This document shows, piece by piece, positions 28,279 through 50,800 of a stretch of DNA of 60,883 nucleotides. The notes under the pieces are model-generated. The model was not told the origin of the DNA. It saw only the letters and a list, made by a program, of their open reading frames with translations, and made no database searches. Both the position numbers and the translations under genes were made by a program. How positions within the stretch are numbered: position 1 is the stretch's first letter; each line of letters starts with the position of its first letter. Source of the stretch: Zoogloeaceae bacterium (GTDB lineage: Bacteria; Pseudomonadota; Gammaproteobacteria; Burkholderiales; Rhodocyclaceae); NCBI GenBank assembly GCA_031288305.1, contig JAITRP010000026.1, positions 1-60,883 on the forward strand. Reading direction: 5' to 3'.

Positions 28279-28288
28279 GGGACTGAAG

Positions 28289-28447: not shown

Positions 28448-28648
28448 CAAGGGCGCAGGCCGAAGGACAGCAATGAGAACTGCCATGACCTGTGCCCAAT
28501 TCTCGAAAGCGGCAACGAAACCCCAAGACCGCGCTGGTCTTGCGTTGCTTTCATATGGTTTGAAGGCGAGGCTGCCTCGCCCTCAAACCCAAATCAATCC
28601 GGCAAAAAGCAGGGTTTTGCTTTTTGCCGTACACGGAAGAAGACCATC

Positions 28649-30016: not shown

Positions 30017-30079
30017 GGCGCAACGCGGCATCAAAGTTTTTTTTCACAACCAATGGCTGAAAGCCAGGAGAACCTCAGC

Positions 30080-30910
30080 ATGAACATCAAACACCTCATC
30101 ACCGCCACCGCCCTGTTGGCCGGCGGCATCACGGGCGGCGTCGCCCTTGCCCAGTCCGCGCCGCTGGAGCTCGTCGGCCCGGTTGCCGAGTACAAGATCT
30201 ACGTCAGCGAAAACGTAGATCAACTCGCCAAGGAGACGGCCAGGTTCGTCGCCGCCGTCAAGGCGGGCGATATTGCCCGCGCCAAGGCGCTGTACGCGCC
30301 CACTCGCGTCTATTACGAGCGCGTCGAACCGATTGCCGAGCTGTTCAGCGACCTGGACGCGGCCATCGATTCGCGCGCCGACGACTACGAAGGCGCGGAG
30401 AAAGACCCGGAATTCCCCGGCTTTCACCGCATCGAATACAGTCTGTGGGAGAAGAACACCACCAACGACGTGAAGCCGGTCGCCGACAAGCTCCTGGCCC
30501 ATGTGAAGGAACTGCAATCGCGCATCGGCAAGCTGACCTTCCCGCCCGAAGTGGTGGTGGGCGGCGCTGCGGTGCTGATGGAGGAAGTGGCCGCCACCAA
30601 GATTTCCGGCGAGGAAAACCGCTACAGCAAGGTGGATCTGTGGGACTTCAAGGCCAATACCGACGGTTCCTACAAGATCGTCGAACTGGTGCGCCCGCTG
30701 ATCGCGAAAAAGGAAGCCAGGTTCCTGGCCGAAGTCGACAAGAACTTCAAGACCGTCTACGACATCCTCAAGACCTACGAGACGAATGAAGGCAAGGGCT
30801 ATGTCTCCTACGAAAAGCTCACCGACAAGGATCGCACCACAATGGCCGCCGCCATCAACAAACTGGCGGAAGACCTCTCCACGTTGCGCGGCAAGTTGGG
30901 GTTGAAGTAA
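30080..30910 (+). CDS. efeO: Periplasmic EfeO/EfeM iron-binding protein (M75 domain only)
   Basis: AGGAG RBS, signal peptide, YERVEPIAELF, GFHRIE and KISGEENRYS. Confidence 0.92.
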   Translation: MNIKHLITATALLAGGITGGVALAQSAPLELVGPVAEYKIYVSENVDQLAKETARFVAAVKAGDIARAKALYAPTRVYYERVEPIAELFSDLDAAIDSRADDYEGAEKDPEFPGFHRIEYSLWEKNTTNDVKPVADKLLAHVKELQSRIGKLTFPPEVVVGGAAVLMEEVAATKISGEENRYSKVDLWDFKANTDGSYKIVELVRPLIAKKEARFLAEVDKNFKTVYDILKTYETNEGKGYVSYEKLTDKDRTTMAAAINKLAEDLSTLRGKLGLK

Positions 30911-32814: not shown

Positions 32815-33614
32815 ATGGATGATTTGACCTACACCCTGCGCCAGCTTTGCCTGCGCAACCGCGACGGCAGCTTTGCGACACAGGCCGACCGGCAACGCTC
32901 GCTGGCCTTGATGGTTCGCCAGTTGCGTGAAGCCGGTTTTCGCCAGACGCGCGCGACCTCGCTCAAGGGCAGGCACTGGCGCACCTGCGCTGGTGGGCCG
33001 AGAAAGTCGGCAAGGCGGGCATTCTACCGAAGGACAATACGAAACTGGGTATTCCCGAACGTCACGCTGTAGCCAAAGAGGACAAGGCGAAAGCACTGGG
33101 GGATAGGCTGGACGGAATTACCGACGCCCATGTCCGCATGAGCCTGAGACTACAGACTGCTTTCGGGCTGCGCCGTGAAGAGTCCATCAAGTTCCGGCCA
33201 AGTATTGCTGACCGAAACGATCATATCGCCATCCGGGGTTCCTGGGCCAAGGGCGGACGGGATCGGACAATACCGATCACGATGCCGGAACAACGCGCCG
33301 CGCTCGATGGCGCTTGCCAGTTGGTGGGTTCCGGGTCGTTGATCCCGGCGAACAAGACCTACATCCAGCAGCGGCAGGTCTATGATGGACAGTGCAAGCG
33401 GGCCGGACTTTCCAACATGCACGGGCTGCGACATCGTTATGCGCAAATTCGGTACGAAACGCTGACGGGATGGAAAGCGCCCAAGGCTGGCGGCCCCAGG
33501 GTAAACCAGCTTGATCCGGCACAATGTCAGAAAGATCGATTCTCCCGGCAGCAAATCAGCCGAGAACTTGGGCATGAGCGGATTGCGGTCACGGCGGTTT
33601 ATCTGGGGAACTGA
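32815..33614 (+). pseudogene. Tyrosine integrase (Integrase_1-type with short N-terminal domain), frameshifted
   Basis: MDDLTYTLRQLCLRNRDGSFATQADR...SLKGRH, then a frameshift at ~32975 into LAHLRWWAEKVGK. Catalytic FGLRREE, KGGR, HGLRHRYAQ and LGH.R....YL are intact. Confidence 0.85.
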
Positions 33615-34394: not shown

Positions 34395-35687
34395 CTACGG
34401 ACTTCCCGAATACAAGCCCTGTTCATCCGCAAGCCAGGTATGGTCGAGAAGCTGTTGGGCAAATTCTTGCGCGGTTGATCTCAGACCTATGATAAAGACA
34501 TAACGTTGCCGTATCATTTCGCGCTTTTCATAAGACTGGACGAGTTTTGTGATGGCAAGCGCCAACGCGGACGCCGAGATTGCTCCAGTTGTTACCGCCT
34601 TGACGGTATATGCGATTCCCATGGCAGGTTTGGATTCTCCATCCGGAACCTCCGGAGGAACGGAAGCCAAATATTTTCCGGCTGCCTTGAAACCGTCAGC
34701 CGGAATTCCAAAAACAATTTTTGCGCCATTGTTGACCACGCTGCCGACTGACGACAGAAATTGCGCTTCTTCCATCACCTTGTTTTGCTCCACAATCTGT
34801 TCGTAATCAAACAGGGCGCGATATATCATGACGGCTGCCGTGGCGGCGTTGGGCTGCGCGTGCCCGATGGAAGCCACCGCTTCGCCGCATTTCAGCCTGC
34901 TCCACAATGCGCCGGGTGTAACGGCGCGAACGCGATCATCGTCTAGATCATGTGGAGGAGTGAAGGTCAAAGGAGCGGGCGGTGGGTTGTCGAGCGCATT
35001 CTGGGCCGCAGGCAGCGCAATCCCGTAGGCGATCTGTCGTTTGCCGCCCGCAGTCTCCATGTGGACATGCTTATCTATTTCGTCGGGCAATGGATCCTCC
35101 GCCACGCGCAAGGCCCAGCAGAAATCCAGTGTATTCCGCTTGCCAAAAACGACATTCTGCGTCCTGGGTAGAGGATTACTATTGAAATCGACAGGAGTAC
35201 CATATTTGGTATTCCGTGTTGCAAGCGATGACACTTCCGTGTCGCTGCCCTCCAATGCGAGAAATGGATAAAAGCGATCTGTATTTGCCATCAAATTCAC
35301 GGATCGGATCGAGTCCGGCACAGGGTCTTTGTCTGTTGCGGCTTCCGGGTCTGCCACCTCGTCTCGCTTCAGGACGCCGTAACGGATCTGCCTGGCTGTC
35401 ATATCCGCAATACCCAGATCCCGATAAGGCAATGTGCCCGTTTCGCTGCCTGCCGCGCAATCTTCCTTTCCATCGCCATCGGTATCCGGGCAGGGCAGGC
35501 GGTGATGCGCCATGATATAGCCTGTCAATGCCCAGTCAGCCTGTTCCAGTTGCGAATATAACCGCGCCTTTCTTTTCTCCTGCATATTCGACTGGATAAA
35601 AGGCCAGAGCAGGACCGTAATCATGCCCAGGATCAGGATGATCACCGACAACTCCAGGAGCGAGAACCCTTTTATTCGACGTTTCAT
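34395..35687 (-). CDS. Large prepilin-like protein (LPCP family) with hydrophobic/coiled-coil C-terminal extension, 430 aa
   Basis: IKG|FSLLEL and LPCPDTDGDGKEDC. Ends LADEQGLYSGSP. Confidence 0.85.
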   Translation of the reverse strand: MKRRIKGFSLLELSVIILILGMITVLLWPFIQSNMQEKRKARLYSQLEQADWALTGYIMAHHRLPCPDTDGDGKEDCAAGSETGTLPYRDLGIADMTARQIRYGVLKRDEVADPEAATDKDPVPDSIRSVNLMANTDRFYPFLALEGSDTEVSSLATRNTKYGTPVDFNSNPLPRTQNVVFGKRNTLDFCWALRVAEDPLPDEIDKHVHMETAGGKRQIAYGIALPAAQNALDNPPPAPLTFTPPHDLDDDRVRAVTPGALWSRLKCGEAVASIGHAQPNAATAAVMIYRALFDYEQIVEQNKVMEEAQFLSSVGSVVNNGAKIVFGIPADGFKAAGKYLASVPPEVPDGESKPAMGIAYTVKAVTTGAISASALALAITKLVQSYEKREMIRQRYVFIIGLRSTAQEFAQQLLDHTWLADEQGLYSGSP

Positions 35688-37069
35688 GGCAGCAATCCTT
35701 TCTCGTCGATGGTCATGGCGCGATCCGTTGCCGCATCGACGGTTTTCAGCATTCGATGGGCGTAGATTTCCGCATCGATACGCGCTTTTTTCGCCTTGGC
35801 AAGTTTTTCATCGCTCTCATCCCTTTTCTTTTTTGCTTCCGATAGTTTCAGTATGTCCATTGCCATTTTTGATCCGGTCAGAATAAACTTGAGAACACTC
35901 AGGGCAGTTTTGAAGACACTGAAAATAATCTTGGAGGGAGATGAACCAGCAGCTGTAAGAGCAATATCAAAAACAGAATTGACGGCTGAAAGGGAATCGT
36001 TTACCATGCTCCATGTTGCCCATTTCATGGAAAGATCCGCCTGTTGATGGCTGTCATAGGCAAGATCCAGTTTGAAAGCCTGATATTGCAGAATGGCAAG
36101 TGAAATCAAATAATTATCATAGACGGCGCGTGCGGTGTGCCCCGCCGCATTGGCGGTAGACAACCGCGCGGGACAGGCAAGCCGCGCCGCCAGTTCCGCA
36201 AAACCCACGGCAATTACATGGTCATCGTAACGATCAGTTGCGGGAATCCAGGGCGCCTCGAATGTTGCGCCAGAAGCCGTGTTGCCGAGGTCGAAGAAAT
36301 TGCCATCATCATCGCTATCGAGTGTGCCGGGATGGGCAATCGCATAGGCAACGGGGATGCTGTTCGACAACACGGAATCCGGTGTGACTACCTGGGCATC
36401 GCGCAGTGCCGCGCAAAAATCAAGGCCATTGACACGCGCGGTAACGGCATTGAGTTGGGCCTGCGTAAATTTACGCACAAGCTTTGGATTATCACCAAGC
36501 GTGCTCATGTTTTGTAACGCGACTCCGCCAAGATCAGTCGACACCTGCCCCATCTGGAGAAAGGAAAAACCGGCAAACGCATTCTTAATCTCGTTTACTG
36601 CGTCCTCATAACTCCCGATCGTGTAGGAAGCATCCCCCCGCAATGGCCATTCCGTGTCGCTTGTATTGGGCGGCACAATGGGCAACCAGGGTTTGTGTCG
36701 CGCAATGGCAAGCGCCAGGGAAGGGGTAGCGGCGTAGCGTAAACGTTCAGGAAAGCGCATACCCAAGGTCTTGAATGGAAATTCTCCGGCTCCGTATTGG
36801 CAGCCACCACTCTTGGTTCGTTCCACACCATCTCCATCTGTTTCTGCCGGACAAGGCAACCGGTGTTCCCGTAATACAAACCCCTGGATCGCTTCATCGG
36901 CCAATGCCAGTTGTTCGATAGCGACTTGTGCATCGTCAACGTCTTGCGACAAACGGAAAAAATTCCAGAAAGCGATTATCATTATGCCGATAATCGTCAG
37001 CGCCACTGCCATTTCCAACAGGGAAAATCCGTTTTCATGGTCATCGCTGAAATAATATTGGTATTTCAT
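35684..37069 (-). CDS. Large prepilin-like protein (LPCP family) with hydrophobic/coiled-coil C-terminal extension, 461 aa
   Basis: ENG|FSLLEM and LPCPAETDGDG. Ends TIDEKGLLP. ATGA overlaps at both ends. Confidence 0.85.
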   Translation of the reverse strand: MKYQYYFSDDHENGFSLLEMAVALTIIGIMIIAFWNFFRLSQDVDDAQVAIEQLALADEAIQGFVLREHRLPCPAETDGDGVERTKSGGCQYGAGEFPFKTLGMRFPERLRYAATPSLALAIARHKPWLPIVPPNTSDTEWPLRGDASYTIGSYEDAVNEIKNAFAGFSFLQMGQVSTDLGGVALQNMSTLGDNPKLVRKFTQAQLNAVTARVNGLDFCAALRDAQVVTPDSVLSNSIPVAYAIAHPGTLDSDDDGNFFDLGNTASGATFEAPWIPATDRYDDHVIAVGFAELAARLACPARLSTANAAGHTARAVYDNYLISLAILQYQAFKLDLAYDSHQQADLSMKWATWSMVNDSLSAVNSVFDIALTAAGSSPSKIIFSVFKTALSVLKFILTGSKMAMDILKLSEAKKKRDESDEKLAKAKKARIDAEIYAHRMLKTVDAATDRAMTIDEKGLLP

Positions 37070-39351
37070 TGCAAGCCTCCTCTTTTATCAACCTGGCGAA
37101 GGATTTCCGTAGCCGCATTGGTCTTGAATATGATGATTTCGCCGTCCGCTTCATGGCCGCACGAACTTGTGTCTACGCTGAATTCCTGCTCCTGGATGGT
37201 CGCGTAATTTTTTTGGGCTGTTTCATGCAGTTCCTTCATTTGATAATATTCCATCCAGAGATCGTAATAATGATTGCGATCGCAATGCTCTTCATTCCTT
37301 TTTTGGATAACGCACTCCTGCCGTGCTTGCGCTTCTGTGTAAGGAATAGGCAACTGTCGAAGAAGACCATAGTATTCAATTTCCCAATTGGACCAGGTAA
37401 TTTCCCGATGGGCAATCTGACAGGCATTGGCGGATTGAGCAGAATAAAATCTGGGGAGTATTTTGTCTCCCGCCGGAAGAGATTCCACAAGATCGGCGAG
37501 GACTTTTTTCTTTTCTGCCAGCGAGGATTGCAGACTCGCAATATACGCTTGTTTTTCCGCTATTTTTCCTGGCAATGCCGCGTTATTCTCATCCAATCCC
37601 GCCCTCATTCTGGCAACGGCTTCATCAATATCCTCCTGGGTATAATAACCGCTTTCCCGCATGACTTTGACCAAATCATCTATGGCGTCTTGACTGTTTG
37701 CTCCTGAAGATTCTTCTTGTTCTTTATAGAGCGCTTGAAGCTTGCCTTCTTCTTCGCTGATATTTTGTTCGATATTATATATGTCGCCGAATAATACTTG
37801 CCGCTGTGGTTCCTGGAATGGCGCATAGTATACGGGCTTTGTTGCCGCGCAGGCCGCGATGATATCATCGGCGGCCTGGAGTTTGACATGCGCCGCGTCC
37901 ATATTATTCTTTGCATCATTCACGGTATCCTGTGCATGCTGCGTGGCGTCTTGCTTTGCTTCCTGGAGCTTTTGTTTGATCTCTTCATTGTTGAAATTTT
38001 CACACATGTCATTGATTATGCTCACATCTTCGCCAAACCTGCTGGCAACATTTCCGACAATGATCGTATTGGCGAGCACCAGCCCAAAATTGGCAATATT
38101 GGCAAGCATGCCAGGCACCTGGAAGCCCAGCGCGGCCACGTTGGATCCTACAGAGGCAGCATGAGGCGGGGCGGGTACGCCAAACCATGGAGGAGAAAAA
38201 CTCATTCCAAGTTCGATGGATTTTTGCACAATATCATATGCTGAAGTTGCTATACTGGCTATCGAGAACATGACATCGAGAAAGGAATTTACAGAACTCC
38301 ATATTCCGTAGCGCAGATTTTTTTTCGCGGAGTCCCTGGTATCATCAAAATACTTGTTGCTGCTTTCAACCATTTCTTGCGCCAGCTTGACGGAATGAAC
38401 CGACGACTGCAAGAGAGAAGAAATCCCTTCTTCGGTATAGTTGACGACAAGCTGGTTCTCGGGATAGGAGACGCTGCTGCCATAGGCTACTGTCGCTGTA
38501 TAGGTGTTTGAAACAGAATAATCCACTGGTAGACAACTAAAAGCCGACATCAGCGAGGGAAAATCGCGCACGAAGACGAAATCGTCGTAGGAGACGCCAT
38601 GACCGCGATCCGGCGCTTCCATTTCGGGGGTGTTTCCGGCGTTGACGCCGTCGAAGGGGTCGCCGTTGTCCGAACGGTCGCCCGCGCCGGGCAGAGCCAG
38701 GCCATAGGCGACGCTGAATGGCGCGCCGCTTCCGCTTGTCTTGTAATGCGCGTAACTTGCCGCATTGTCCGTCCTGTCCTTGTAGGCAAGCCGCATGGTC
38801 TCGCACATGTCCAAACTGTTGCGCGCCTTGAAGACCTCGTTATCCTCCGGGGTGGGGTCGTACTTATCCGAAGGCAACTGTCGGCTCGAACCATCGGCCA
38901 CGGTGACGGGTTCGTTCCCGGCGAGGTCGCCGGTCGCCGCGTTCCGATAGACCATGTAGCGCATGGTCAACGTATTGGGCGTATAGAGCATGGCGTCGAG
39001 ACCGAGCGCCGTTACCGGCAGGTAGCCCTTGGCGCGCGTGCAGTTTTCCGCGCCGTTCGGGGTAGCCGCCGGGCAGGGCAAGCGGTGGTGGATGGAGGCG
39101 AAGCCCAGGATCGCCTCGTCCGCCCGCGCCAGCGCCAGGCGTTGCGTGGCGGCAATTTCCTCGCTGGGCAGCCCGGCGCGCAGATACGCGATGCCCGCCG
39201 CCAGGCTGGCGCCGAGCAGGAGGAGGAGCAAGGCAACGGTCAGGAGGCTGATGCCGCGTTGCGCATGGCGGAAGACAGAAGACGGAGGACAGAAGACAGA
39301 GCGCTCGCTACGCTCGCTTTGTGATCTGTGTTCGGTATTCAGTTGTCGCAT
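37066..39351 (-). CDS. Very large minor-pilin-like protein lacking Glu5 (PilX/GspK-like signal), 761 aa
   Basis: QRG|ISLLTV and LPCPAATPNGAENC, then a hydrophobic hairpin and a long coiled coil. Ends QVDKRGGLQ. Confidence 0.8.
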   Translation of the reverse strand: MRQLNTEHRSQSERSERSVFCPPSSVFRHAQRGISLLTVALLLLLLGASLAAGIAYLRAGLPSEEIAATQRLALARADEAILGFASIHHRLPCPAATPNGAENCTRAKGYLPVTALGLDAMLYTPNTLTMRYMVYRNAATGDLAGNEPVTVADGSSRQLPSDKYDPTPEDNEVFKARNSLDMCETMRLAYKDRTDNAASYAHYKTSGSGAPFSVAYGLALPGAGDRSDNGDPFDGVNAGNTPEMEAPDRGHGVSYDDFVFVRDFPSLMSAFSCLPVDYSVSNTYTATVAYGSSVSYPENQLVVNYTEEGISSLLQSSVHSVKLAQEMVESSNKYFDDTRDSAKKNLRYGIWSSVNSFLDVMFSIASIATSAYDIVQKSIELGMSFSPPWFGVPAPPHAASVGSNVAALGFQVPGMLANIANFGLVLANTIIVGNVASRFGEDVSIINDMCENFNNEEIKQKLQEAKQDATQHAQDTVNDAKNNMDAAHVKLQAADDIIAACAATKPVYYAPFQEPQRQVLFGDIYNIEQNISEEEGKLQALYKEQEESSGANSQDAIDDLVKVMRESGYYTQEDIDEAVARMRAGLDENNAALPGKIAEKQAYIASLQSSLAEKKKVLADLVESLPAGDKILPRFYSAQSANACQIAHREITWSNWEIEYYGLLRQLPIPYTEAQARQECVIQKRNEEHCDRNHYYDLWMEYYQMKELHETAQKNYATIQEQEFSVDTSSCGHEADGEIIIFKTNAATEILRQVDKRGGLQ

Positions 39352-39435
39352 GGCGCTTCCTTTCAGATTACGGATACCTGACTACAAAGGCCGAAGGCCG
39401 CTCTGTCTTCTGTCCTCAGTCCTCTGCCTTCTGTC
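39271..39435. repeat. Repeat family R5, copy overlapping the 5' end of the 761-aa gene
   Basis: GAAGACAGAAGACGGAGGACAGAAGACAGA ... CTCTGTCTTCTGTCCTCAGTCCTCTGCCTTCTG arms, with core TTCAGATTACGGAT and AGGCCGAAGGCCGCTCTGTC. Confidence 0.85.
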
Positions 39436-39436
39436 A

Positions 39437-40699
39437 TCATGACACCTGCAACAGCATGGATTGGCGAATCAGGTCATAGACCGGCAGCAAGAGCGCGACG
39501 ACGATGAATACGAAAAACGCGCCCGCCAGCAGGATAACCACCGGCTTGATGATTTCCGCCAGTGAGGCGATCAGATGGTCGAAGCGCCGCCGGTATTCCG
39601 CGGACAGGCGTTCCATCTGCTCGTCCAGCGAACCGGTATGCTCGCCCACGGCGATCATGCGCAAAATGAGCGGCGGGAAACGGTTCGCCGCGCGCATGGC
39701 GACGCTCAGGAGCTCGCCGCGCGCGATGAAGGTGCGCGTTTTCGCCAGGCCTTCCCGGTAATATTCATCGCCTGTGGAACGTTCCAGTACCGCCATGCTG
39801 TGCTGGATGTCCAGCCCGGCGCGAATCAGGATGCCCAGGTGTTCGGTGAAAAAGGCCATGCCGGCGGTGCGCAGCAATACGCCGCTCACCGGCAGCCGGT
39901 GTCCCATCCGGTAGCACCACTGGCGCGCGGCCCGGCTGTGAGAGAAAAGGAGCCACGGCGCGGCGACGAGCGCGGCAAGGATCAGGCCGCTCAACAGCCC
40001 GTTGGCCGCCAGCCAGTCGGAAAAACGGATCAGGGCGAGCGTCAGCGGCGGCATTTTCGCGTGCAGTTGGCGGAACAGCCCGGCAAGATTGGGGATGACG
40101 TAATAGAGCCAGAATGCCGCCGCGCCGAGGACCGCGGCAAAGACGAACAGCGGATAGATCAGCGCCCGGCGCGCGTTGCGTCCGATGTCCGCCACGCGCT
40201 CCAGATGGGCGGAGGCTTCCAGCAACATGCGGTCGAGCGTGCCGCTTTCATTGCCGATTTCCACCAGATGGCGCACGATTTCCGGGAACAGGTCGGGGTG
40301 GCGGGAAAACGCCTGGCTGACGCTCACGCCGCTTTCCAGTTCGCCGAGCAGGAGTCGCGTGGCCCGCACCGTCCCGCCCGCCATCCCGAACGGCGCTTCC
40401 TCCACGATCATGCGCAGCCCGTCGATGATGGAAATGCCGCTCTTCAGCATCAGCGCCAGATCGCGCAACATGCTGCCCAGGTCTTCCCTGCGGACGGACG
40501 AGGCGCCCAGTTTTTCCAGCGCGCGCAGGATGCCGTTTACCCAATCCGGACAGCGGTATACCCCCAGAACAACCGCCCTGTAATGCCGTTCCAGCCAGAG
40601 GGAGACAGAAAAATCGCGCTCGACCGCAAACCAGGTAAAGCCGTTTTTCTTCCTGCCGTCTTCCAGCAGCAGGCGATAACAGTAGAAACGCCCGCTCAT
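39437..40699 (-). CDS. Type II secretion F / PilC / MshG-family platform protein
   Basis: LESGVSVSQAF, GNESGTLD, ALIYP, GEHTGSLD and LLLPVY. Confidence 0.93.
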   Translation of the reverse strand: MSGRFYCYRLLLEDGRKKNGFTWFAVERDFSVSLWLERHYRAVVLGVYRCPDWVNGILRALEKLGASSVRREDLGSMLRDLALMLKSGISIIDGLRMIVEEAPFGMAGGTVRATRLLLGELESGVSVSQAFSRHPDLFPEIVRHLVEIGNESGTLDRMLLEASAHLERVADIGRNARRALIYPLFVFAAVLGAAAFWLYYVIPNLAGLFRQLHAKMPPLTLALIRFSDWLAANGLLSGLILAALVAAPWLLFSHSRAARQWCYRMGHRLPVSGVLLRTAGMAFFTEHLGILIRAGLDIQHSMAVLERSTGDEYYREGLAKTRTFIARGELLSVAMRAANRFPPLILRMIAVGEHTGSLDEQMERLSAEYRRRFDHLIASLAEIIKPVVILLAGAFFVFIVVALLLPVYDLIRQSMLLQVS

Positions 40700-40779
40700 G
40701 TTCGGAGGACAGAGAACAGAAGACAAAACACTCGCCGCGCTTGCTTTTGATATCTGTATTCAGTAGTCAGTTGTTGCAT
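40696..40779 (-). CDS. Putative 27-aa repeat-derived leader ORF coupled to the PilC-like gene
   Basis: GAAGGAG-7 nt-ATG, encoding MQQLTTEYRYQKQARRVFCLLFSVLRT*. Its stop overlaps the downstream ATG (ATGA). Confidence 0.45.
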   Translation of the reverse strand: MQQLTTEYRYQKQARRVFCLLFSVLRT

Positions 40780-40855
40780 GGAATTACTCCTTCAGATTAC
40801 GGATCACAAGGGCCGAAGGCCGCTCTGTCCTCTGTCTCCTGTTTCCTGTCCTCCG
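40703..40855. repeat. Repeat family R5, copy at the ATPase/PilC junction
   Basis: Same arms and core (CCTTCAGATTACGGAT, GGCCGAAGGCCGCTCTGTC) as 39271-39435. Confidence 0.85.
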
Positions 40856-42614
40856 CAACCGCGCCGACGACGCGCGCGATTTCCGCCAGCGTGCTCTGCC
40901 CGCTGCGCACCCGCCATTTCGCCTGCGTGACGAGACTTTCGAAGCCCTGTTTCTCCGCCATCTGGCGCAGAGTTTCCCGTCCGCCGTCATCGGCGATGCA
41001 GTTGGCCAGGGCATCGTCGATTTCCAGGATTTCATAGACCGGCAAGCGGCCGATGTAGCCGCTTTGCCCGCAGGCGTCGCAACCCACGCCGTGCCGGGCG
41101 TGGATCGCGCCTTCGTCGCCGCCATCCGCCAGCCAGGCGCGTTCGGCCTCATTCAGGGACGATTCCACGCTGCAATGCGGGCAGTTCCTGCGGATCAATC
41201 GCTGGCTGACGATGGCGATCAGATTGTCGGCGATGACGCGCGGGTCCAGTCCCAGCGGACGCAGGCGCGGCACCACGCCGAAGACGTTGGCGACATGCAG
41301 GCTGGAGAGCACGAGATGGCCGGTTGCCGAGGCTTCCACCGCCGCCTGCGCGGTTTCCCGGTCGCGGATTTCGCCGATCAGGATCACATCGGGATCATGA
41401 CGCAGGAAATAGCGCAGCGCGTTGCTGAAATCGTATTCGGCGCGCCGGTTGACTTCCGTCTGCGCCGCGCCGGGGATTCGGTATTCGATCGGGTCTTCCA
41501 CCGTGAGAACGTTGCTTTCGACCAGGGACTGAACCCGCTGCAAGGCCGCGTGCAGGGTCGTGCTTTTGCCGGACCCCGTCGGGCCGACGACCAGGATCAT
41601 GCCCGATGGTTTCGAGAAAACGCGTTCGAGCCTGCGCACGTCCCTGGGCAGGAATCCCAGTTGCGTGAGGCCGGCAAGCTCGTTTTGTTCCGGCAGGAGC
41701 CGGAGAACGATGCGTTCGCCGAATTCGACGAACAGGATGGAAACGCGTATGGCGAACGGCTGGCCGAGGATCGTGGTGTGATAGCTGCCGTCCTGCGGGC
41801 GCCGCTGTTCGGAAATATCCATTTCGGCGGATAGCTTGATGAAGGTCGCCACCCGCATCAGGGAATGCGGCAACGCCATGATGGGGCGCAGGACTCCGTC
41901 GATGCGGAAGAACACGTGCATGCTCCAGGGTGAGGGAACGAAGTGCACGTCCGTCGCCCGCTCATGCACCGCCTTGTGCAACAGGAAATCCAGGAACGGG
42001 CCGGGGCTGTACGCATGATCCACGTCATTGGCAAGCAGGCGAATTTCCCGCTCCAGCATGGCGTCGACGGAATATTGCGTAAAGTAATAGGCATCCCGGA
42101 TATGACGGGCAACGCGGGAAAATTCCCCCTGCGCGAAACGGCAGGGCAATCCCGTCCGCTCGCGCGCGATATGGGCCACTTTCAGTTCGTCGCCGTCGCC
42201 CAGGAGGACTTCCAGGCAGTCCGCGACGCGCCGCAAGGGCAGGAAACCATTCGTCAGGCAAAGCTCGCGGCCAAAACAGGCGAGCAGATCCGCGTCCGGC
42301 GGCGGAAAGTCCTCATGCGCAAGGAAAGGGATGCCTTTTTTCCCCGCCAGTTCGCGGGCGACATCATATTCGCGCACCAAGCCGTGCCGGACCAGCAGTT
42401 GTCCCAGACGCAGATTTTCCGTCTTCTGCTTTTGCAGGATGTACTGGAACTGCCAGGGGGTCAGGAATCCACGTTCCAGAAGGCGCTCGCCCAGACGCGC
42501 GGGAGCGCCCGGACGCGCGGGAAGGTCGAGTTGCCGTCCCGCTTCCTCGATCACGTCCGCCACGTCTGCCATGTCTGCTACATCCAGCGCGAAATTTTCC
42601 CGGTTCATCATCAT
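40797..42614 (-). CDS. GspE/PilB/MshE-family assembly ATPase with MshEN domain
   Basis: Tandem RLG..L...G motifs, Walker A GPTGSGKS, TVEDPIEY, Walker B PDVILIGEIRD, His box and CxxC...CxxC. Confidence 0.95.
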   Translation of the reverse strand: MMMNRENFALDVADMADVADVIEEAGRQLDLPARPGAPARLGERLLERGFLTPWQFQYILQKQKTENLRLGQLLVRHGLVREYDVARELAGKKGIPFLAHEDFPPPDADLLACFGRELCLTNGFLPLRRVADCLEVLLGDGDELKVAHIARERTGLPCRFAQGEFSRVARHIRDAYYFTQYSVDAMLEREIRLLANDVDHAYSPGPFLDFLLHKAVHERATDVHFVPSPWSMHVFFRIDGVLRPIMALPHSLMRVATFIKLSAEMDISEQRRPQDGSYHTTILGQPFAIRVSILFVEFGERIVLRLLPEQNELAGLTQLGFLPRDVRRLERVFSKPSGMILVVGPTGSGKSTTLHAALQRVQSLVESNVLTVEDPIEYRIPGAAQTEVNRRAEYDFSNALRYFLRHDPDVILIGEIRDRETAQAAVEASATGHLVLSSLHVANVFGVVPRLRPLGLDPRVIADNLIAIVSQRLIRRNCPHCSVESSLNEAERAWLADGGDEGAIHARHGVGCDACGQSGYIGRLPVYEILEIDDALANCIADDGGRETLRQMAEKQGFESLVTQAKWRVRSGQSTLAEIARVVGAVAEDRKQETEDRAAFGPCDP

Positions 42615-43255
42615 TCCTCGAAAACAGTGCCCTGGGATGAATAATTGTCGATGTCCATGCCGAGGGCCTGGCGCACGGCGCGCAGTTGCTGTGAATCCGG
42701 ATGGCGGCGGGCAAGATCCGCCAGAATCCGCTCGGCTTCCTTTCCCTGTCCGGCGCGCGTCGCGAGAATGGCAAGGTTGATGCCGGCGTTCTCATCGTTT
42801 TCGATCCGTTCCAGGATCTCCAGATAGGCCTCCCTTGCCGCCGCGTCCTGCCCGGAAGAGAAGGAAAGCCAGGCTCGTATCCGCAGCATGGTGAGGCTTC
42901 GTTCGGGAAGGAAATGCCCCAGCGTGCCCAGCAACCCTTCCGCCAGCGCGAAATCCTCCTGCAAAATCGCCGCATTGACTCGCCGCACCAGATCCCGGAT
43001 CTGCGCCTCGCGCGTTTTCTTCGCGTGGGCGGCGGATTCTCCTTCCCCGACCCTGGCGTTTGTTTTTTTGTTGATGGACAGAGAGGATTCCGCCTTGGTT
43101 ACCGATGGATTCTGCAACGGCGCGTTTTCCTGGGCGCGGGCGGCGCAGGACAAGCCTCCGGCCAGATGAACGAACACCAGCGCCAGCACAAGCCGCGCGC
43201 GAAACGACATGCCGCGGCGCTTGTCCGATGCAGCGTATTTTTCCGAATCGCTCAT
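42611..43255 (-). CDS. TPR-containing exported protein (MshN-like)
   Basis: Signal/TM segment and TPR-like helices (AREAYLEIL...NAGINLAIL). Confidence 0.75.
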   Translation of the reverse strand: MSDSEKYAASDKRRGMSFRARLVLALVFVHLAGGLSCAARAQENAPLQNPSVTKAESSLSINKKTNARVGEGESAAHAKKTREAQIRDLVRRVNAAILQEDFALAEGLLGTLGHFLPERSLTMLRIRAWLSFSSGQDAAAREAYLEILERIENDENAGINLAILATRAGQGKEAERILADLARRHPDSQQLRAVRQALGMDIDNYSSQGTVFEE

Positions 43256-44964
43256 AGCAACCTCACGCGCAGAACGATCACCAGTTCCCGGCTCTGGTGC
43301 GACTTGCTCTGTTCGCCGAACAGGTTCCCCACCGCCGGAATGTTCGACAATCCCGGCAGGCCATCCTTGTTGTTCGACTGGTTCTGGTCGATCAATCCGC
43401 CGATCATCACCATGTCGCCGTCGCCAAGATTCAGCGTCGTCGTCAGGCCCTTGTAGTTGATCCTGGGCAGGGTCACGACGTTGCCGTTGCCGACGTCGAT
43501 GAGGCTCAGGGATTCCGGGGTGACTTCCGTCTGGACCGGGTGGATCAGGAGTTCGATGCGTCCGTTGTCGTGGATGTAGGGCACCACGCCCACGACCACG
43601 CCGGAAAAGAGGGCGTCGGTTTCCACATCGGAGGTGGTCGTCGCGCTGCCGCCGCCGATGTTGTTGAAAGTCGAACTGCTCTTGGTGATGTAGCGAATGT
43701 TGGCGCCCACGCTCAGAAGCGCCGGCGTGCCGTTGCGCACGCGCACGCTCGGATTGGAAAGAACGCGCAGGGTGCCGAACGAACTCAGGGCCTTGATCGT
43801 GGCCGAGAAACGCTCGTCGCCATAGGAAAGGCCGAGACTGTTGCCCGCCAAAGCGCCGCCGATGGCCTGCGCCGGGATGGTCAGGGTGCGGTCGAGGAGC
43901 GTCCCGTCGGGAAAGGAACTGGAATGTTCCTGCACGCGCAGGGAATCCGCGCCGTAGACGCCCGCGACATTGCGCCGCAACAGCGTCCAGTCGACGCCGA
44001 ACTGGTGGCCGTCGTTCAATTGCACGTCGATCAATTGCGCTTCCACCAGAAGCTGGCGGCGCAGGATGGTTTTGTTCAGGTCGATGATCTGCTGGATCGC
44101 CCGAATCTGCGAAGGACGCGCTTTCACGTACAGGGCGCCGCTCGTCCGGTTCAGGCTGTAGCGTACCGGAGAGGGTTCCGCCGCCACGCCGCCCTGTTCC
44201 GCTCCGGTTACGGACGGGTTTCGCGCGGACGGTTGCGTTGGAAGACGCCCTTCCGCAAGACCGAGAATATTCTTCACCGCGTTCTCGAGTTCCTCATAGG
44301 TATCGATCTGCCTCGGCGTATTCCCGCTGATGCCGAAATCGGCGCGCAGCGTATTCGCGCTTCCCGACACGCTGTCGCCGGCCGAAACGTTGCTGCCGAA
44401 GACATCGCCGCCGGAAGCGAGATTGATCGAAAGATTGGTGTTCAGAAAACCCGCGCTGAAAATACGCTCTTCGTACAAATCGATGCGCAACGCGCCATTC
44501 CTGATTTCACCGCGCAAATCGAAGGTTTCCAGGATGTGGTTGTAGAGTTCGCGTGTCGTCACGTTCTTCAGCGCCAGGCTGGCGCGGATTTCCTGCCGCA
44601 GCACGAGCGGGTCGACCACCAGGTTCATGCCCAGCTGATTCGCCAGGGTCCACAGCAGCCAGTCGATGCCCGTATCGTGCATGTTGATTGAAATGGTTTC
44701 GTTTTCGAGCGGATCGTATTTCGGCGCGACCGGACGGGCCGCGCGTTCCACGACGGCGGCGCGATCCAGCCGCGCGCGCAACGCTTCATGCTGTTGCGCG
44801 AGTTTTTCCGACTCGCCGCTGACCGTTTCGGCCAATCCCGTCACAGGGATGGGTTCGTTGGGATCGAGCGCCTCGAAACTCCGGTGCGTGCTGCATGCTT
44901 GCAGGAAAAACACGCTCGCGGCGAAGCAGGCGGCTCTCTGAAGACTGGACAAGAGAATTTTCAT
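43252..44964 (-). CDS. Secretin of MshL type (lipoprotein secretin)
   Basis: Lipobox FLQAC, VEAQLIDVQL...FGVDW, LSNPSVRVRNG, IGGLI, GLPGLSNIP.VGNLF and RELVIVL. Confidence 0.92.
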   Translation of the reverse strand: MKILLSSLQRAACFAASVFFLQACSTHRSFEALDPNEPIPVTGLAETVSGESEKLAQQHEALRARLDRAAVVERAARPVAPKYDPLENETISINMHDTGIDWLLWTLANQLGMNLVVDPLVLRQEIRASLALKNVTTRELYNHILETFDLRGEIRNGALRIDLYEERIFSAGFLNTNLSINLASGGDVFGSNVSAGDSVSGSANTLRADFGISGNTPRQIDTYEELENAVKNILGLAEGRLPTQPSARNPSVTGAEQGGVAAEPSPVRYSLNRTSGALYVKARPSQIRAIQQIIDLNKTILRRQLLVEAQLIDVQLNDGHQFGVDWTLLRRNVAGVYGADSLRVQEHSSSFPDGTLLDRTLTIPAQAIGGALAGNSLGLSYGDERFSATIKALSSFGTLRVLSNPSVRVRNGTPALLSVGANIRYITKSSSTFNNIGGGSATTTSDVETDALFSGVVVGVVPYIHDNGRIELLIHPVQTEVTPESLSLIDVGNGNVVTLPRINYKGLTTTLNLGDGDMVMIGGLIDQNQSNNKDGLPGLSNIPAVGNLFGEQSKSHQSRELVIVLRVRLL

Positions 44965-45697: not shown

Positions 45698-46309
45698 TTA
45701 CCGTCCCGATCCCGAAAACGGCGCGATTCCCGCAGTCGCGGGCTGCCCGTGGAGACTGGCCAAAAACTGGTTTTGCAGGGCGGCGGCCTTGCGTCGCAAA
45801 TTTTCCATTTTCGCGACGTCGGGCGCGGGCTTTTTGTATTCCGCGTCCATCTCCTTGGCTATCTGTTGCAGATCCCGCGCGATGCGAAGATTTTGCCGCT
45901 GGACATTCAGGTCGATCCCGGCGATCACGCTCGTTCCCTGGATTTCGATCAATTCGGCAAACAGGGCGTCGATCTCACCGATGTCCGGCTCCTTTTGGGC
46001 GGAAATGGTCTCGAACTTCTTCTGCAAGGCTTGCAGGCGAATGGCATCGACAGGTTTGGGAACGAAGTTGGGAACAACGCCGCCAGGCGGGACAGGCGAT
46101 GGTTCGGGGTTCTTTCGCAAAACCAGCGAGCGGGCATCGGCAGGTTTGGGGGCTGGCTCGGAGGCAGGTTCGGCAACGGGCGCGGCGGCGATTTCCCGGT
46201 TGGACGGCGCGTCCTGCCCGTTCAGGATGACAAAAAGCGCCGCGCTCAGGGCGCAAACCATCACGCCCAGCATGGAAATGACTATGCGGTAGAGTTTGAA
46301 TTTGTTCAT
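45698..46309 (-). CDS. Membrane-anchored hypothetical protein in the pilus operon
   Basis: N-terminal TM, Pro-rich linker and helical C-terminus. Tightly packed in the operon. Confidence 0.75.
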   Translation of the reverse strand: MNKFKLYRIVISMLGVMVCALSAALFVILNGQDAPSNREIAAAPVAEPASEPAPKPADARSLVLRKNPEPSPVPPGGVVPNFVPKPVDAIRLQALQKKFETISAQKEPDIGEIDALFAELIEIQGTSVIAGIDLNVQRQNLRIARDLQQIAKEMDAEYKKPAPDVAKMENLRRKAAALQNQFLASLHGQPATAGIAPFSGSGR

Positions 46310-46323
46310 GGCGGATCGACCTT

Positions 46324-46893
46324 TCAGGGTATGCGGGCGGGAGGCTGCGGGAAAACGGCGGGGATCTCGATTCGTTGGCGCTTGCGCCCCTTTCGCACGA
46401 CGACCGAGGTATCGCGGATTGCCACAAGGCGGGCGCCGTCGGACAACAGGTCACCTTCGCGCACGAAATACCCATCGATGATGGCGCGCCGGAAATCCTG
46501 GGAAAAAAAGATGAAGGAAAGCTGGGGATCGATACCGGGCGAAAGCGGACGGTTGTTTCCCGATGCCTCATCGGCGTGCGCGCCGGATAACGCGGGTACG
46601 GCGGTGGAAATTTGCACAGGTTCGGCGGCTGCAACCTTCGGCAACGGAAACAGCCATTCCCGGGTATCGATCCGGCGCGTTTGCAGGACGACCGATGCAT
46701 CTTCTTCATCCTTCTCGAAACGCCGCAGTGTGACCCTGGTTTTTTCGAGTTCCTGGGCGTCGGTATTCGGGGCGGGCTGTCTCATCCCTGCCGAGATCGG
46801 CGCGCGTCCAGGGGTCCGTTCCAGGAGGAGAAATCCCGTCATGATCGAGAGCAGGATGGCAAGGCAGGAAATCAGGAGAGCGGCGTTTTTCAT
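46324..46893 (-). CDS. MshK/PilP/GspC-like alignment protein
   Basis: N-terminal TM and C-terminal RRAIIDGYFVREGDLL...ARLVAI (HR-like beta domain). Confidence 0.7.
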   Translation of the reverse strand: MKNAALLISCLAILLSIMTGFLLLERTPGRAPISAGMRQPAPNTDAQELEKTRVTLRRFEKDEEDASVVLQTRRIDTREWLFPLPKVAAAEPVQISTAVPALSGAHADEASGNNRPLSPGIDPQLSFIFFSQDFRRAIIDGYFVREGDLLSDGARLVAIRDTSVVVRKGRKRQRIEIPAVFPQPPARIP

Positions 46894-48200
46894 GAAATAT
46901 CTCCCGCGCTACGCGAATCCGGGTTCAGCCGGTAGGCAAAGGCGCTGCCGGGAGGGGCGGCGCGCGGCGCCAGGGTGACATCGATTGCCTCCGGTTCGAA
47001 GCCAAGCTGGCGCAAGCGCGCCAGGAAATTCGCAAGCTGCTGGTCGCCGCCGGCGGTCGCGTCGCCCCATCCTTCGATGACGATGCGACGATCATCCGCC
47101 TGCATGTAAACGCGCAGCAACTTGATGTCGTCGCCGGCGGCCAGGCGCAGGTTTTGCAGCAAATCGCCAGGATTCGTTTCTGTCCTGGCGGCGGACAGCA
47201 GGTCGATGAAATCGCGGGTGGCGAAAAAATCGGGAGGAAGCATTCCCGCCATTCCCCCTGCTTCCCCCGTGGATTCCACGATCTTGCGCGTATCTTCGCC
47301 CAATGCGGCGACTTCTCGGCGAATCGAGACGGCCTGGAAGAAGAAGGCAAGACCGGCCACCAGGCATGCCAGCGCCAGGATACCGGCGCTCAAGCTGAAA
47401 ACTCCGATGTTTCGCTCGGCGAAATAACTCGCCTTGGCCAATAGCGTATTCACGGCGATCCGCTCCGAAAGGCAGGGCGCCAATACCTCGAGCGGAAAAT
47501 ACCGGTACGTGCCGTCGTCCTGGAGATAGCCTTCCCTCTTGACTTCCTCGACGCGGCTTTCGGAATGCGCGGCGAAAATTTCCGCCAGGCCCGCTTCTCC
47601 GAAGGCATACCAGCGAAACGCCAACCTTTGCCCGGGCACTTCCAGCGTTTGTTCCTGGCGGATACGTCCGGCCAGCGTCATGGCGCAGGCGCGTGAATCG
47701 TCCTTTTCGTCACCGCGTACCCGCGCGGAAAAATAGCAAAGCTTCCTTCGTTCTTGCGCCAGGACGCTGATTCTTTTCCCGCCATGGAAAACGACGCCCT
47801 CTCCGTCCCGCCGGATCAGCCTGCGCATCAAGGCGGCCTGCGCGATCACCAGGCAATGCTCGTCCTGCGACGCGATCCAGGACTGCATGCGCCGCCAGGC
47901 AGTCATCGGCATGGCGGTATAAAGCGCCTGCCAGCCGTCAGATACAGGCGCGCCGCAATGGATCAGCACCTTGGTTTCTTCGTTTTCAATGACGCCGTCG
48001 TCACGCAGGCGGCGACCGATCAGGGCTTCCGCGTAATGTTTTTTTTCGTGGATCGTGGAAACGCCACTGACCGCGCCGCCGAAATCCGTCAGTACCAGGG
48101 TTGGCGCGGCAAGTCGCGGATATTCCGGCACCGCCCGGATGCAACCTTCCTCGACCAGCATCCAGTTCCCGTCGATGTTGAGCAGGATGTCAGCATTCAT
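46890..48200 (-). CDS. GspL/PilM-PilN-like alignment protein
   Basis: Large cytoplasmic domain, one TM, coiled coil and a ferredoxin-like C-terminus (IVIEG...LANFLARL). Confidence 0.65.
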   Translation of the reverse strand: MNADILLNIDGNWMLVEEGCIRAVPEYPRLAAPTLVLTDFGGAVSGVSTIHEKKHYAEALIGRRLRDDGVIENEETKVLIHCGAPVSDGWQALYTAMPMTAWRRMQSWIASQDEHCLVIAQAALMRRLIRRDGEGVVFHGGKRISVLAQERRKLCYFSARVRGDEKDDSRACAMTLAGRIRQEQTLEVPGQRLAFRWYAFGEAGLAEIFAAHSESRVEEVKREGYLQDDGTYRYFPLEVLAPCLSERIAVNTLLAKASYFAERNIGVFSLSAGILALACLVAGLAFFFQAVSIRREVAALGEDTRKIVESTGEAGGMAGMLPPDFFATRDFIDLLSAARTETNPGDLLQNLRLAAGDDIKLLRVYMQADDRRIVIEGWGDATAGGDQQLANFLARLRQLGFEPEAIDVTLAPRAAPPGSAFAYRLNPDSRSAGDIS

Positions 48201-48712
48201 GGTTCACCTCCTCCGGCGCGAAAGAGCAGCGTCCCGCGCACCGTCAACAGCAGGAGCGCATTCCCGGATGGATGGAACAGGCCTTTGTCGTTTTCCGTGA
48301 CCGACAAATCGAAAGCCTCGATGTGGAACAGGCGGCCATTCGTGCGCGAGAACGACTGGAAAAGGGTATTCGCGTCGGCGCGCGCAAGCTGTGTCTGCCG
48401 CAAATCGATGAAGCGTTTCGCCCAATAGCGTGGCGTTGCGCGCCGCGCTTCGGCAAGCCGCGACAATTGCCGCGCGGTTTTTTCCAATTCGGCGCGGGAT
48501 TGGGTTTGCGCCTGGATTTGCAGGGCATCTCGATGCGCGCGTTGCGCGAGAACCGTCTCCAGACGCGCCTCGCGCGCCTCGCGCACCGCAAGGAGCAACC
48601 CGCCCGCGGCAAGCAGCAAAAACACCAACATGCCGACGGCGAGCGCCAGGCGCTTTCTCCGTCCGTTCCGCCAGCCGCCGGATAAAGAAGAAGCGGAAGA
48701 AGCAGCGTTCAT
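48197..48712 (-). CDS. Membrane-anchored protein (PilO/GspM-like position)
   Basis: Single TM plus coiled coil, with an ATGA overlap with the downstream gene. Confidence 0.65.
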   Translation of the reverse strand: MNAASSASSLSGGWRNGRRKRLALAVGMLVFLLLAAGGLLLAVREAREARLETVLAQRAHRDALQIQAQTQSRAELEKTARQLSRLAEARRATPRYWAKRFIDLRQTQLARADANTLFQSFSRTNGRLFHIEAFDLSVTENDKGLFHPSGNALLLLTVRGTLLFRAGGGEP

Positions 48713-48715
48713 GCT

Positions 48716-49564
48716 CTATTGCTCCATGATCCATTGCGCCGTGACGAGCGCCACGCGATCTTCGTCACGATTGCCGCCCACGCCTTCGGCGCTCGAGGAA
48801 TACGCGCTTTCCGTCTGGGCAAAGGTATTGTTCGCGCGCCATTCCTGGCCGGGAACCTGATGCGAAGGTTCCTGGGCGTTATGCCGGGCATCCTGCTGGC
48901 GGAAGCGTCCTTCGAGCGCGTCGGCCTTGCCGTCGATCAAACCGTCCAGATAGCGCGCCAGATCCGGCGTCAGACCGCGCAGCACCATCACGTTGCCCGC
49001 GCCGCTGATGGTCGAGGGAGGATTCCATTGGAAACATATCTGCAATTCGGTCGCGTTGCCGTTCGTGTCCGAATAGACGTAGCGATCTTCCAGTCCCTCG
49101 CCGCGTCCCGGCGGCATGCGAATGCCGATCTTTTGCACCAGTTCCCGCAAATCCTGCCGCGCCAGGTCGCTGTCACCTTCCCCGATCGAGTTCCTGGGAT
49201 AGCCCTGACCATGACAGATGCGCAGGCCGGTATTGGCGTAGTTTTCCGGAATGCCGGCCAGCGTCCCCGAAGGATCTCCCCGGCCTGCGCGCGCGCCGCC
49301 GATCGAGGCTTCGCCGCCATTGACCATGTAGGTCGGCGCGATCTGGCTGTCCCCCAGCACCACGCCGGTACGCTGATAGTATTCGTCGTAAGCCTTTTTC
49401 CATTCGAAGACGAATTTGTTGGAAATCCGGTGATATTCGGCGTTGCGCTGTACGTCCTTGCCTACCGCCATGGCGCCGACGATGACGCCGATGACGACCA
49501 GGACGACCGCCAGCTCGATCAGCGTGAATCCCGCTTCATTCGGATGATTCGGAAATGCGCTCAT
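48716..49564 (-). CDS. Prepilin-like protein, paralogue family A (282 aa)
   Basis: EAG|FTLIEL, GKDVQRNAEY, EDRYVY and GLTPDLA. Confidence 0.9.
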   Translation of the reverse strand: MSAFPNHPNEAGFTLIELAVVLVVIGVIVGAMAVGKDVQRNAEYHRISNKFVFEWKKAYDEYYQRTGVVLGDSQIAPTYMVNGGEASIGGARAGRGDPSGTLAGIPENYANTGLRICHGQGYPRNSIGEGDSDLARQDLRELVQKIGIRMPPGRGEGLEDRYVYSDTNGNATELQICFQWNPPSTISGAGNVMVLRGLTPDLARYLDGLIDGKADALEGRFRQQDARHNAQEPSHQVPGQEWRANNTFAQTESAYSSSAEGVGGNRDEDRVALVTAQWIMEQ

Positions 49565-49583
49565 GTCGTTCCTCTACTTTCCC

Positions 49584-50405
49584 CTACTGATTCATCTTGT
49601 AGATGGCGACGACCGTTTCCACCTGATCTTCATCGCGTTGTTCACCGGTAGTCGTCGCCTGATTAAGCGGGTTGGCGCCTGTATGGGCGTAGGTGTTATT
49701 CACGCCCCATTCGATACCCGCCACGTTCGCGCTGGCATTCGTGACGCCTTCCTGGCGAAAAAGCCCTTCGCGCGCATCGGGTTTGCCGTCGATCATCTGA
49801 TCGAGCGAGCGCGCCAGATCCGGGGTCAGTCCGCTGATGACCATCACGTTTCCCGCGCCAGCGGCGGTACTCGGCGCATTCCACTGGAAACAGACCTGGA
49901 TTTCCTGCGGATTGCCATTGCTGTCGAGGTACACGTAACGATCCTCGCGTCCTTCCGCGCGTCCTGGCGGCATGCGGACGCCGACTTTCTGCATCAGGAT
50001 ACGCAGATCGAAATTGGTTCCGGTTTGGAAATTCCGGGCCATTTTGGTACCCTTCGCGCCATGGCAGATCGCATCCGGCGCCGACGCCCCCGTCATGTCT
50101 CCTCCGGAAACCGTGCCGCTGGCGGCCACGCCGACGTTGAAATTGGCGCCATTGACCATATAGCGTGGCTCCTGCTGGTTGTCGCCAAGCGGATAACCCG
50201 TGCGCTGGCCGTAGGCGTTGTAGGCGACCGCCCACTGGTCGATGAATTTCTGCTTGATCCGCGCGTATTCGGCGTTGCGCTGCACATCCTTGCCAATCGA
50301 CACCGCGCCCAGGATAAGTCCGATGATGATCAGCACCACCGCCATCTCGATCAGCGTAAATCCCTGAGCGGCAAATGGCCTGCGGCATGTCTTGCATGTT
50401 TTCAC
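49584..50405 (-). CDS. Prepilin-like protein, paralogue family A (273 aa), candidate major subunit
   Basis: GGAGG RBS and GTG start, AQG|FTLIEM, GKDVQRNAEY and GRAEGREDRYVYLDSNG. First gene of the operon. Confidence 0.9.
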   Translation of the reverse strand: MKTCKTCRRPFAAQGFTLIEMAVVLIIIGLILGAVSIGKDVQRNAEYARIKQKFIDQWAVAYNAYGQRTGYPLGDNQQEPRYMVNGANFNVGVAASGTVSGGDMTGASAPDAICHGAKGTKMARNFQTGTNFDLRILMQKVGVRMPPGRAEGREDRYVYLDSNGNPQEIQVCFQWNAPSTAAGAGNVMVISGLTPDLARSLDQMIDGKPDAREGLFRQEGVTNASANVAGIEWGVNNTYAHTGANPLNQATTTGEQRDEDQVETVVAIYKMNQ

Positions 50406-50800
50406 GAAGAATTCCCTCCATGTGAAATTGAACGACATGCGCACACAGTAGAAAGATTTCGTGACGGAATGATGACCCATGGGAAAAATATCATTTGCCG
50501 GAAGGCCGTACCCGGTTACGCCCCGCTGTTTGTTTTTCTCCGATCCGCTACATAAGCACTGGCTCCTTTATCCTATGCGAAAAGGGTTTGCGCAAAAGGG
50601 GAAAAGGTTGGAAAGGAAGGGGCTTCAAGGGAAAGGGGCCTACCCGCAAAAGGTGCTTTCCTCCTGAATGCTGGATTTCCCGAAAAGGCGAAAAAACCGG
50701 CGCGATTCGCGCCGATCGCTGTTTATGGGTTCCCCCCTCAAGCCGCGCGCGCGAATGTCTGCGCGCACTCCGACATGGCGGGTCTTTCCAGGACGGGTAG

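Follow-up and report, generated by a model that had tools for sequence, protein, structure and literature searches.

The window analysed here, a 60,883-nucleotide stretch of the Zoogloeaceae bacterium assembly GCA_031288305.1 (contig JAITRP010000026.1, positions 1 to 60,883, forward strand), contains a contiguous 15-gene minus-strand operon for a mannose-sensitive haemagglutinin (MSHA)-type type IV pilus, in which three adjacent pilins of 761, 461 and 430 aa (classes 1, 2 and 3) continue past their cores into long extensions. We give about even chances to the reading that this trio assembles as one heterotrimer at the filament tip and inserts apolar hairpin ends into a target membrane as an anchor. 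The operon reads, in order, two pilins, four accessory genes, a 238-aa pilin (class 4), the secretin MshL, a tetratricopeptide repeat (TPR) protein, an ATPase resembling MshE and a platform protein, followed by the trio and by one last pilin (Table 1).

The same trio in the same order occurs in approximately 0.5–2% of sampled Pseudomonadota genomes, with 7 of 400 genomes positive in a phylum sample, 2 of 399 in a class sample and 4 of 400 in an order sample, where all three genes were present in each of the four positive genomes. Thirteen of the 17 phylum-sample matches were fetched, the four unfetched matches being core-only, and six genomes (L035–L039 and L041) with the same core and other C-termini were left out. 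Named carriers included Vreelandella, Rhodoferax, Ramlibacter, Sulfuricella, Pseudoxanthomonas, Pseudofulvimonas, Acidovorax and Paracidovorax, while among 40 close relatives the operon was found only in two (G001 and G009), both times cut by contig ends. The survey of homologue neighbourhoods proposed in the original prediction bore out the conservation of the trio, as the complete order of classes 1-2-3 followed by the last pilin was present in 19 of the 27 fetched loci that reached it. Loci L042 and L043 were also complete but duplicate L019, whose class-3 gene is split by a frameshift and is intact in these near-identical copies; L013, L016 and L040 were cut by contig ends and L015 had a short class-3 gene near one, the groups overlapping in number solely by way of these duplicates. 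Two loci (L033:15726-18230 and L034:16044-18509) carried the large Glu5-less pilin third and Cys pairs in the class-2 tip. No match was found in the plasmid and phage sequences searched; the only strong sequencing-run match was a termite-gut metagenome, which may be the source of the assembly, and there was no RNA run among the matches listed. Databases annotate the family as hypothetical or 'type II secretion protein', and no description of it was found in the open literature searched.

The machine itself is an MSHA-type type IV pilus. The MshL secretin, MshE-type ATPase, MshG-type platform and single locus without a peptidase of the MSH pilus model (Denise 2019) were all found, by TIGR02519, T2SSE, MshEN, NF053729 and T2SSF rather than by MacSyFinder profiles, and for the MshA-family major pilin the operon pilins gave only N-methyl motif matches. 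The lack of a prepilin peptidase in MSH loci is reported in PMC6668835; in the window's own genome (G000) PilT/U and the peptidase lie on other contigs, the sole peptidase match being on C183. The Vibrio cholerae MSHA system, with an MshD-O-P tip and MshQ, is likewise a single locus with MshL, an MshE-like cyclic di-GMP (c-di-GMP) ATPase, an MshG-like platform and a TPR protein, and with neither peptidase nor PilT in the locus (PMC6668835, PMC10191384, PMC9815625). The window pilins differ in that they match MSHA pilins at the N-terminus only (MshA 9lab, E 0.0067, residues 11–39), no MshQ-sized adhesin recurs near the loci and all three tip candidates bear long apolar hairpins. An ExeA/MshM-type ATPase (AAA_22 and PG_binding_1) was present in most other loci and missing from the window. 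Identity as a 'Tpp' pilus was considered and dropped.

Sequence comparison upheld what had first been noted of the pilin cores, namely that the trio shares a prepilin signal and the RLPCP and DD.V motifs with the 238-aa pilin, that the latter terminates after the core and that the trio genes are joined by ATGA overlaps (37066–37069 and 35684–35687). Prepilin sites follow G33 (ISLLT, with Thr at +5), G14 (FSLLE) and G7 (FSLLE) in the 761-, 461- and 430-aa proteins. The conserved Cys described after the core (residues 273, 299 and 267) was invariant in alignments of 31, 67 and 68 homologues. Absence of Glu5 from the largest pilin, in turn, was confirmed in the window but did not extend to the family, since Glu5 was present in 17 of 30 orthologues and lost in 13. 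Class-2 and class-3 profiles aligned over their whole length (probability 100%, E 3e-82) and the class-1 profile could be aligned to the others through the core and into the first helix. In a quick core tree the classes grouped by position (9 changes versus 35 when shuffled), although classes 1–3 did not each form one clade. Pfam and NCBIfam scans of the trio and the scanned homologues returned the N-methyl motif only, and extension-only profiles matched nothing else in G000 (best unrelated E 0.0068). The pilins of the six genomes left out above join the same LPCP core to different C-terminal domains, so that the core has the look of an all-purpose carrier onto which tip domains are grafted.

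Past the conserved Cys, each tip pilin extension is predicted to form an antiparallel helical hairpin. The monomer structure prediction called for initially, made with AlphaFold (AF2), gave, for the 461-aa pilin, two unbroken helices (residues 299–374 and 382–457) with arms of approximately 114 Å and an overall predicted local distance difference test (pLDDT) score of 83.7, while the 761-aa model was weaker (pLDDT 63.6, predicted template modelling score 0.40), with a hairpin, a helical insert and an end helix. Antiparallel covariation was found in all three classes, where 22, 21 and 19 of the top 79 pairs lay on one antidiagonal in comparison to 6–7 expected (0 of 200 permutations); model and covariation are not independent, as the structure prediction used the same alignment. 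Classes 2 and 3 keep a constant spacing between the Cys and a conserved D-x-x-G motif (median 145 aa, interquartile range 143–148), with the most apolar 50-residue window at the extension midpoint (centred at 0.52–0.53). All three tip pilins carry this motif at their C-terminal end, indicating that the extension is probably one long hairpin coming back to the pilin head. The class-1 insert has a median identity of only about 15% among homologues and is absent in L028, and three-helix matches across residues 339–734 hint, with low confidence, that it folds back on the hairpin.

Hydrophobicity was expressed as the Kyte-Doolittle mean of the best 19 or 50 residues (KD19, KD50). Hydrophobic hairpins had been described from the window alone, and the segments are present but modest there (KD19 1.65, 1.70 and 1.57), that of the 461-aa protein being amphipathic with lysines. 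Across the family the apex is apolar, close to the genome's own translocator-like protein and well above soluble chemoreceptor hairpins. KD19 reached at least 1.6 in the extensions of 30/31 class-1, 60/66 class-2 (one short row of the 67 was left out) and 50/68 class-3 homologues and in only 3/67 and 1/68 cores, and the family median KD50 values were 1.46, 1.20 and 1.62 for the sets of 66, 68 and 31 homologues, respectively. The controls, few in number, were the SseC-family translocator-like protein of G000 (KD19 2.23, KD50 1.58) and four chemoreceptor hairpins (KD19 0.7–1.3, KD50 0.06–0.53). Taken on the most polar face, the tip helices still came close to neutral in five of six cases (medians of −0.05 to 0.59), while the stalks were amphipathic (−1.0 to −1.8), and the tip of most homologues was apolar on all faces for 37–72 residues. 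An apolar Cys-x(2-9)-Cys loop stands at the apex of 21 of 31 class-1 tips, in place of which the window's class-1 apex carries SFSPPWFGVPAPP.

The three tips also appear to change together. Tip hydrophobicity correlated among the three paralogues of one locus (rho 0.73–0.83, n=15–18), values that are overstated because the loci are related. At codon 269, four codons ahead of the conserved Cys, the 761-aa gene shows a drop in GC content at third codon positions (GC3; 0.83 before and 0.49 after, p 5e-20, with the breakpoint chosen from the data); GC3 remains low through the 461- and 430-aa genes and recovers in the last pilin, and no step this large was seen in any other locus compared. The low-GC3 block runs from the core/extension boundary through both smaller genes; it is likely a tip cassette that was swapped, and we infer that all three extensions were exchanged together. 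Of the 51 differences that separate the 461-aa protein from its 89% relative, 14 fell within residues 355–395; no matching concentration of tip differences was seen for class 3. As to direction, pooled covariation favoured arm 1 lying parallel to alpha1 (11 of 40 pairs versus 3.0 expected, 4/200 permutations; antiparallel 41/200), a weak test in which this was one of five bands, and the pair W35-L459 sets the base of the hairpin close to the kink in alpha1. The signal weakly suggests an apex pointing approximately 120 Å away from the producer's membrane.

By analogy with other filaments, the trio would cap the pilus. Tip trimers of minor pilins capped by a large Glu5-less subunit are described as the rule in type IV filaments in PMC7248040, PMC10191384 and PMC12918778. 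Like GspI-J-K and PilI-J-K, the trio consists of three adjacent minor pilins, one of them large and here lacking Glu5, with a core-only fourth pilin; it differs in the helical extensions of all three members. It may also differ in Glu5, whose loss is not general, and in its C-terminus, where the monomer models end in helix and coil with the D..G motif in place of the complementing beta-strand described in PMC12918778. The nearest functional precedent is the Kil Tad-pilus tip KilLMN of Myxococcus xanthus, with a different machine and fold. The available text of PMC12075869 presents KilLMN as a predicted heterotrimeric minor-pilin tip with variable distal domains, tied to contact with other cells, built on a Tad rather than an MSHA machine, with a large beta-scaffold in one subunit's distal domain and with three of four tips needing a T3SS (type III secretion system); that text contains no account of an apolar hairpin trio.

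The likeness to YopB/IpaB and to ClyA/Hbl/Nhe toxins proposed in the original prediction did not survive as kinship. The trio resembles T3SS translocators (SctE/SctB; YopB, IpaB) and tripartite alpha-pore toxins (Hbl, Nhe, Ahl, Smh, Mak) in its coiled-coil stalk, Ala/Gly/Val-rich apolar hairpin and similar hydrophobicity, but there is no detectable homology and its members are tethered pilins with prepilin sites, unlike translocators, which are secreted by the injectisome and have no prepilin signal. SseC (PF04888) had no match in the trio or scanned homologues at E<=0.05–0.1, the Foldseek search suggested for the extensions gave nothing at E<=0.001, and VIA returned generic long coiled coils only (RipA, YscO, colicin arms, TcA channel helices, SipB), all below the helical-match bar. 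Profile matches in the PDB were generic, with IpaB (E 0.085) and Hbl L1 (E 0.39) among coiled coils; MakA (E 0.26) and SmhB (E 0.47) were weak matches, PF05791 was touched by 1 of 31 class-1 members at E 0.047 with none above the cut-off, and hhalign to the genome's own SctE-like protein gave a probability of 0.05%. The tip may act in the manner of a translocator, yet it belongs to neither the translocator nor the toxin families. Short contigs of G000 (C221, C89 and C47) carry T3SS-like parts, namely a second FHIPEP gene, a secretin and the SseC-family protein, the SseC match being on C47. A T3SS link as a family trait was rejected, as a single FHIPEP gene was found in each of four other carriers, which fits a flagellum only, and SseC had no match in four carriers.

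Under the anchor reading, the prepilins would be cut by the unlinked peptidase, the trio would start the filament with the 238-aa pilin beneath it, and the MshE-like ATPase with its c-di-GMP motif would extend the filament through MshL. The polar stalk helices of the three hairpins would bundle and the hairpins project outward, so that six apolar helices enter the target bilayer; an unlinked PilT, on which Vibrio MSHA pili depend according to PMC9815625, may afterwards pull cells together, and the class-1 coiled-coil insert may shield the tip or choose the target. Several results weigh against this reading. Model confidence is low at the hairpin tip (pLDDT 55–72 at the turn of the 461-aa protein, below 50 in the 761-aa protein), and the window's own copies (KD50 0.94–0.96, 1.02 and 0.50) rank near the bottom of their classes for 50-residue hydrophobicity, at fifth lowest of 66 in class 2, fifth lowest of 68 in class 3 and lowest of 31 in class 1, with two amphipathic tips carrying 7 charges in their best 50 residues and the 430-aa tip (KD50 0.50) within the chemoreceptor range. 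To these are added the weakness of the direction test, the strong pair A55-T305 that does not fit the parallel arrangement, the overstated correlations, and the variant locus L029:7406-10706, whose class-1 and class-2 hairpins are shortened (58 and 105 aa) and whose class 3 has a Trp-rich insert.

The data are also compatible with apolar helices buried inside a six-helix bundle. The trio could accordingly be a rigid spike, or a sticky pad binding wax, oil or cuticle, its apolar faces holding the trimer together or gripping such surfaces while no bilayer is crossed. We consider this somewhat unlikely, as a bundle needs one apolar face whereas most tips are apolar all round above an amphipathic stalk, and the Cys-bounded class-1 apex loop cannot be buried along a bundle. 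Alternatively, the hairpins could be transmembrane anchors in the producer's inner or outer membrane, so that the trio would be no exposed tip but a short pseudopilus, a length stop or an anchor at the base. In agreement with this, 31/66, 22/68 and 23/31 homologues have two windows of KD19>=1.6, and class 1 often retains Glu5, unlike canonical apical pilins (PMC12918778). The covariation favouring an arm 1 that runs with alpha1 and leads away from the membrane, its apex approximately 120 Å from the hairpin base, and fast tip divergence and cassette exchange that fit an exposed part, make an own-membrane anchor very improbable in our view.

The original prediction had proposed a heterotrimeric tip that inserts for killing, anchoring or delivery. 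Insertion as an anchor retained its footing in the co-inherited hairpin trio, the apolar apex and the co-varying tips, while the genomic data spoke for neither killing nor delivery: among 137 flanking open reading frames (ORFs), Pfam identified no toxin, effector or immunity gene common to the loci, and none was chaperone-like outside the operon. A contact weapon, in which a small pore made by the six helices, or one built jointly by several tips, would depolarise or lyse a target cell, is quite unlikely on these grounds, as one tip supplies only three hairpins and neither a second FHIPEP gene nor SseC was found in the four other carriers scanned for each; none of the named carriers is known as a predator. 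We also hold it unlikely, if less so, that the family represents an undescribed, widespread type IV pilus subtype with a pilus-tethered translocon, whose six helices insert on contact and open or fuse the target membrane and whose exchangeable cassettes set the target. The type IV pilus tips known to date use globular domains to hold receptors, glycans, DNA or secreted cargo. A bilayer-entering tip, a mode of holding cells that the papers searched did not contain, would, if true, attach by a different principle, and were it to permeabilise the target it would act as a contact weapon without a toxin of its own. MSHA-type pili have been little studied outside Vibrio, and the compact, conserved operon in cultured, harmless Halomonadaceae, with Vreelandella venusta (L026) as one carrier, makes the question directly testable; the family is also found in plant-associated Paracidovorax and could bear on colonisation.

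Table 1. Features of the pilus operon in the window.
Feature	Position	Strand	Remarks
Two large pilins, candidate shaft subunits	48716..50480	-	One of 282 aa; the other a 298-aa ORF that likely starts from GTG at 50405
Four conserved accessory genes	45698..48712	-	203, 189, 436 and 171 aa; likely inner-membrane alignment complex
Class-4 pilin, 238 aa	44980..45696	-	Core only; likely adaptor beneath trio
Secretin MshL	43252..44964	-	TIGR02519, 302 bits (cut-off 250)
TPR protein	42611..43255	-	
Extension ATPase, MshE-like	40797..42614	-	T2SSE and MshEN; c-di-GMP motif NF053729 above cut-off
Platform protein, MshG/PilC-like	39437..40726	-	T2SSF
Class-1 tip pilin, 761 aa	37066..39351	-	Lacks Glu5; pilin core followed by hairpin (312-438), helical insert (444-721) and a final helix bearing the D..G motif
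Predicted hairpin of 761-aa pilin	38038..38418	-	Helices 312-384 and 398-438 joined by loop SFSPPWFGVPAPP; <=1 charge in 60 residues
Variable coiled-coil insert of 761-aa pilin	37189..38022	-	Residues 444-721
Class-2 tip pilin, 461 aa	35684..37069	-	Glu5 kept
Predicted antiparallel hairpin of 461-aa pilin	35699..36175	-	76+76 residues, 299-374 and 382-457; apolar zone ~348-408, apex ~380
Class-3 tip pilin, 430 aa	34395..35687	-	Glu5 kept; hairpin 267-424, apex near 347, from covariation alone (no fold model)
Low-GC3 block	34395..38544	-	Begins at codon 269 of 761-aa gene; GC3 0.53 vs 0.77 in eight other operon stretches
Last pilin, ~230 aa	33692..34384	-	Counted from ATG after AGGAGG; paralogue of two first pilins; always downstream of trio

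From its position, we take the TPR protein to be MshN-like. The 203-aa product (45698–46309) just before the 238-aa pilin is a conserved, membrane-anchored helical protein with no family, for which a role as periplasmic hairpin chaperone is speculation. Promoter and terminator scans of the operon gave results near chance. The flanking ORFs shared between loci were BTAD/AAA-type regulators (five loci), MalT-like proteins (two), 7TMR-DISM kinase pairs (two), one TPR-like pair and, among close kin, a small number of housekeeping genes. The five regulators are related large AAA_16 proteins, with BTAD in two, that adjoin the operon (L047:5726-9511, L049:5444-8158, L051:6974-10897, L052:5275-8730 and L053:2899-6306), and their position suggests ligand-induced expression; the family was not found in G000.

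A dispersed inverted-repeat element lies at 39256–39445, between MshG and the large pilin, and at 40701–40860, between MshE and MshG, in frame with the leader of the 761-aa pilin and with the MshE end; one copy gave 85 blastn matches and the element occurred on 43 contigs overall. Directly after the operon is a split integrase remnant (Phage_int_SAM_2 and Integrase_1; 32815–33614). Contigs C157 and C209 of G000 carry a second MSHA-like locus, comprising secretin, ATPase and platform, as well as an unlinked pilin that shares the LPCP motif. Elsewhere in the window, an iron-uptake-like gene run (26203–30910), presumably EfeUOB, ends in an imelysin/peptidase M75 gene.

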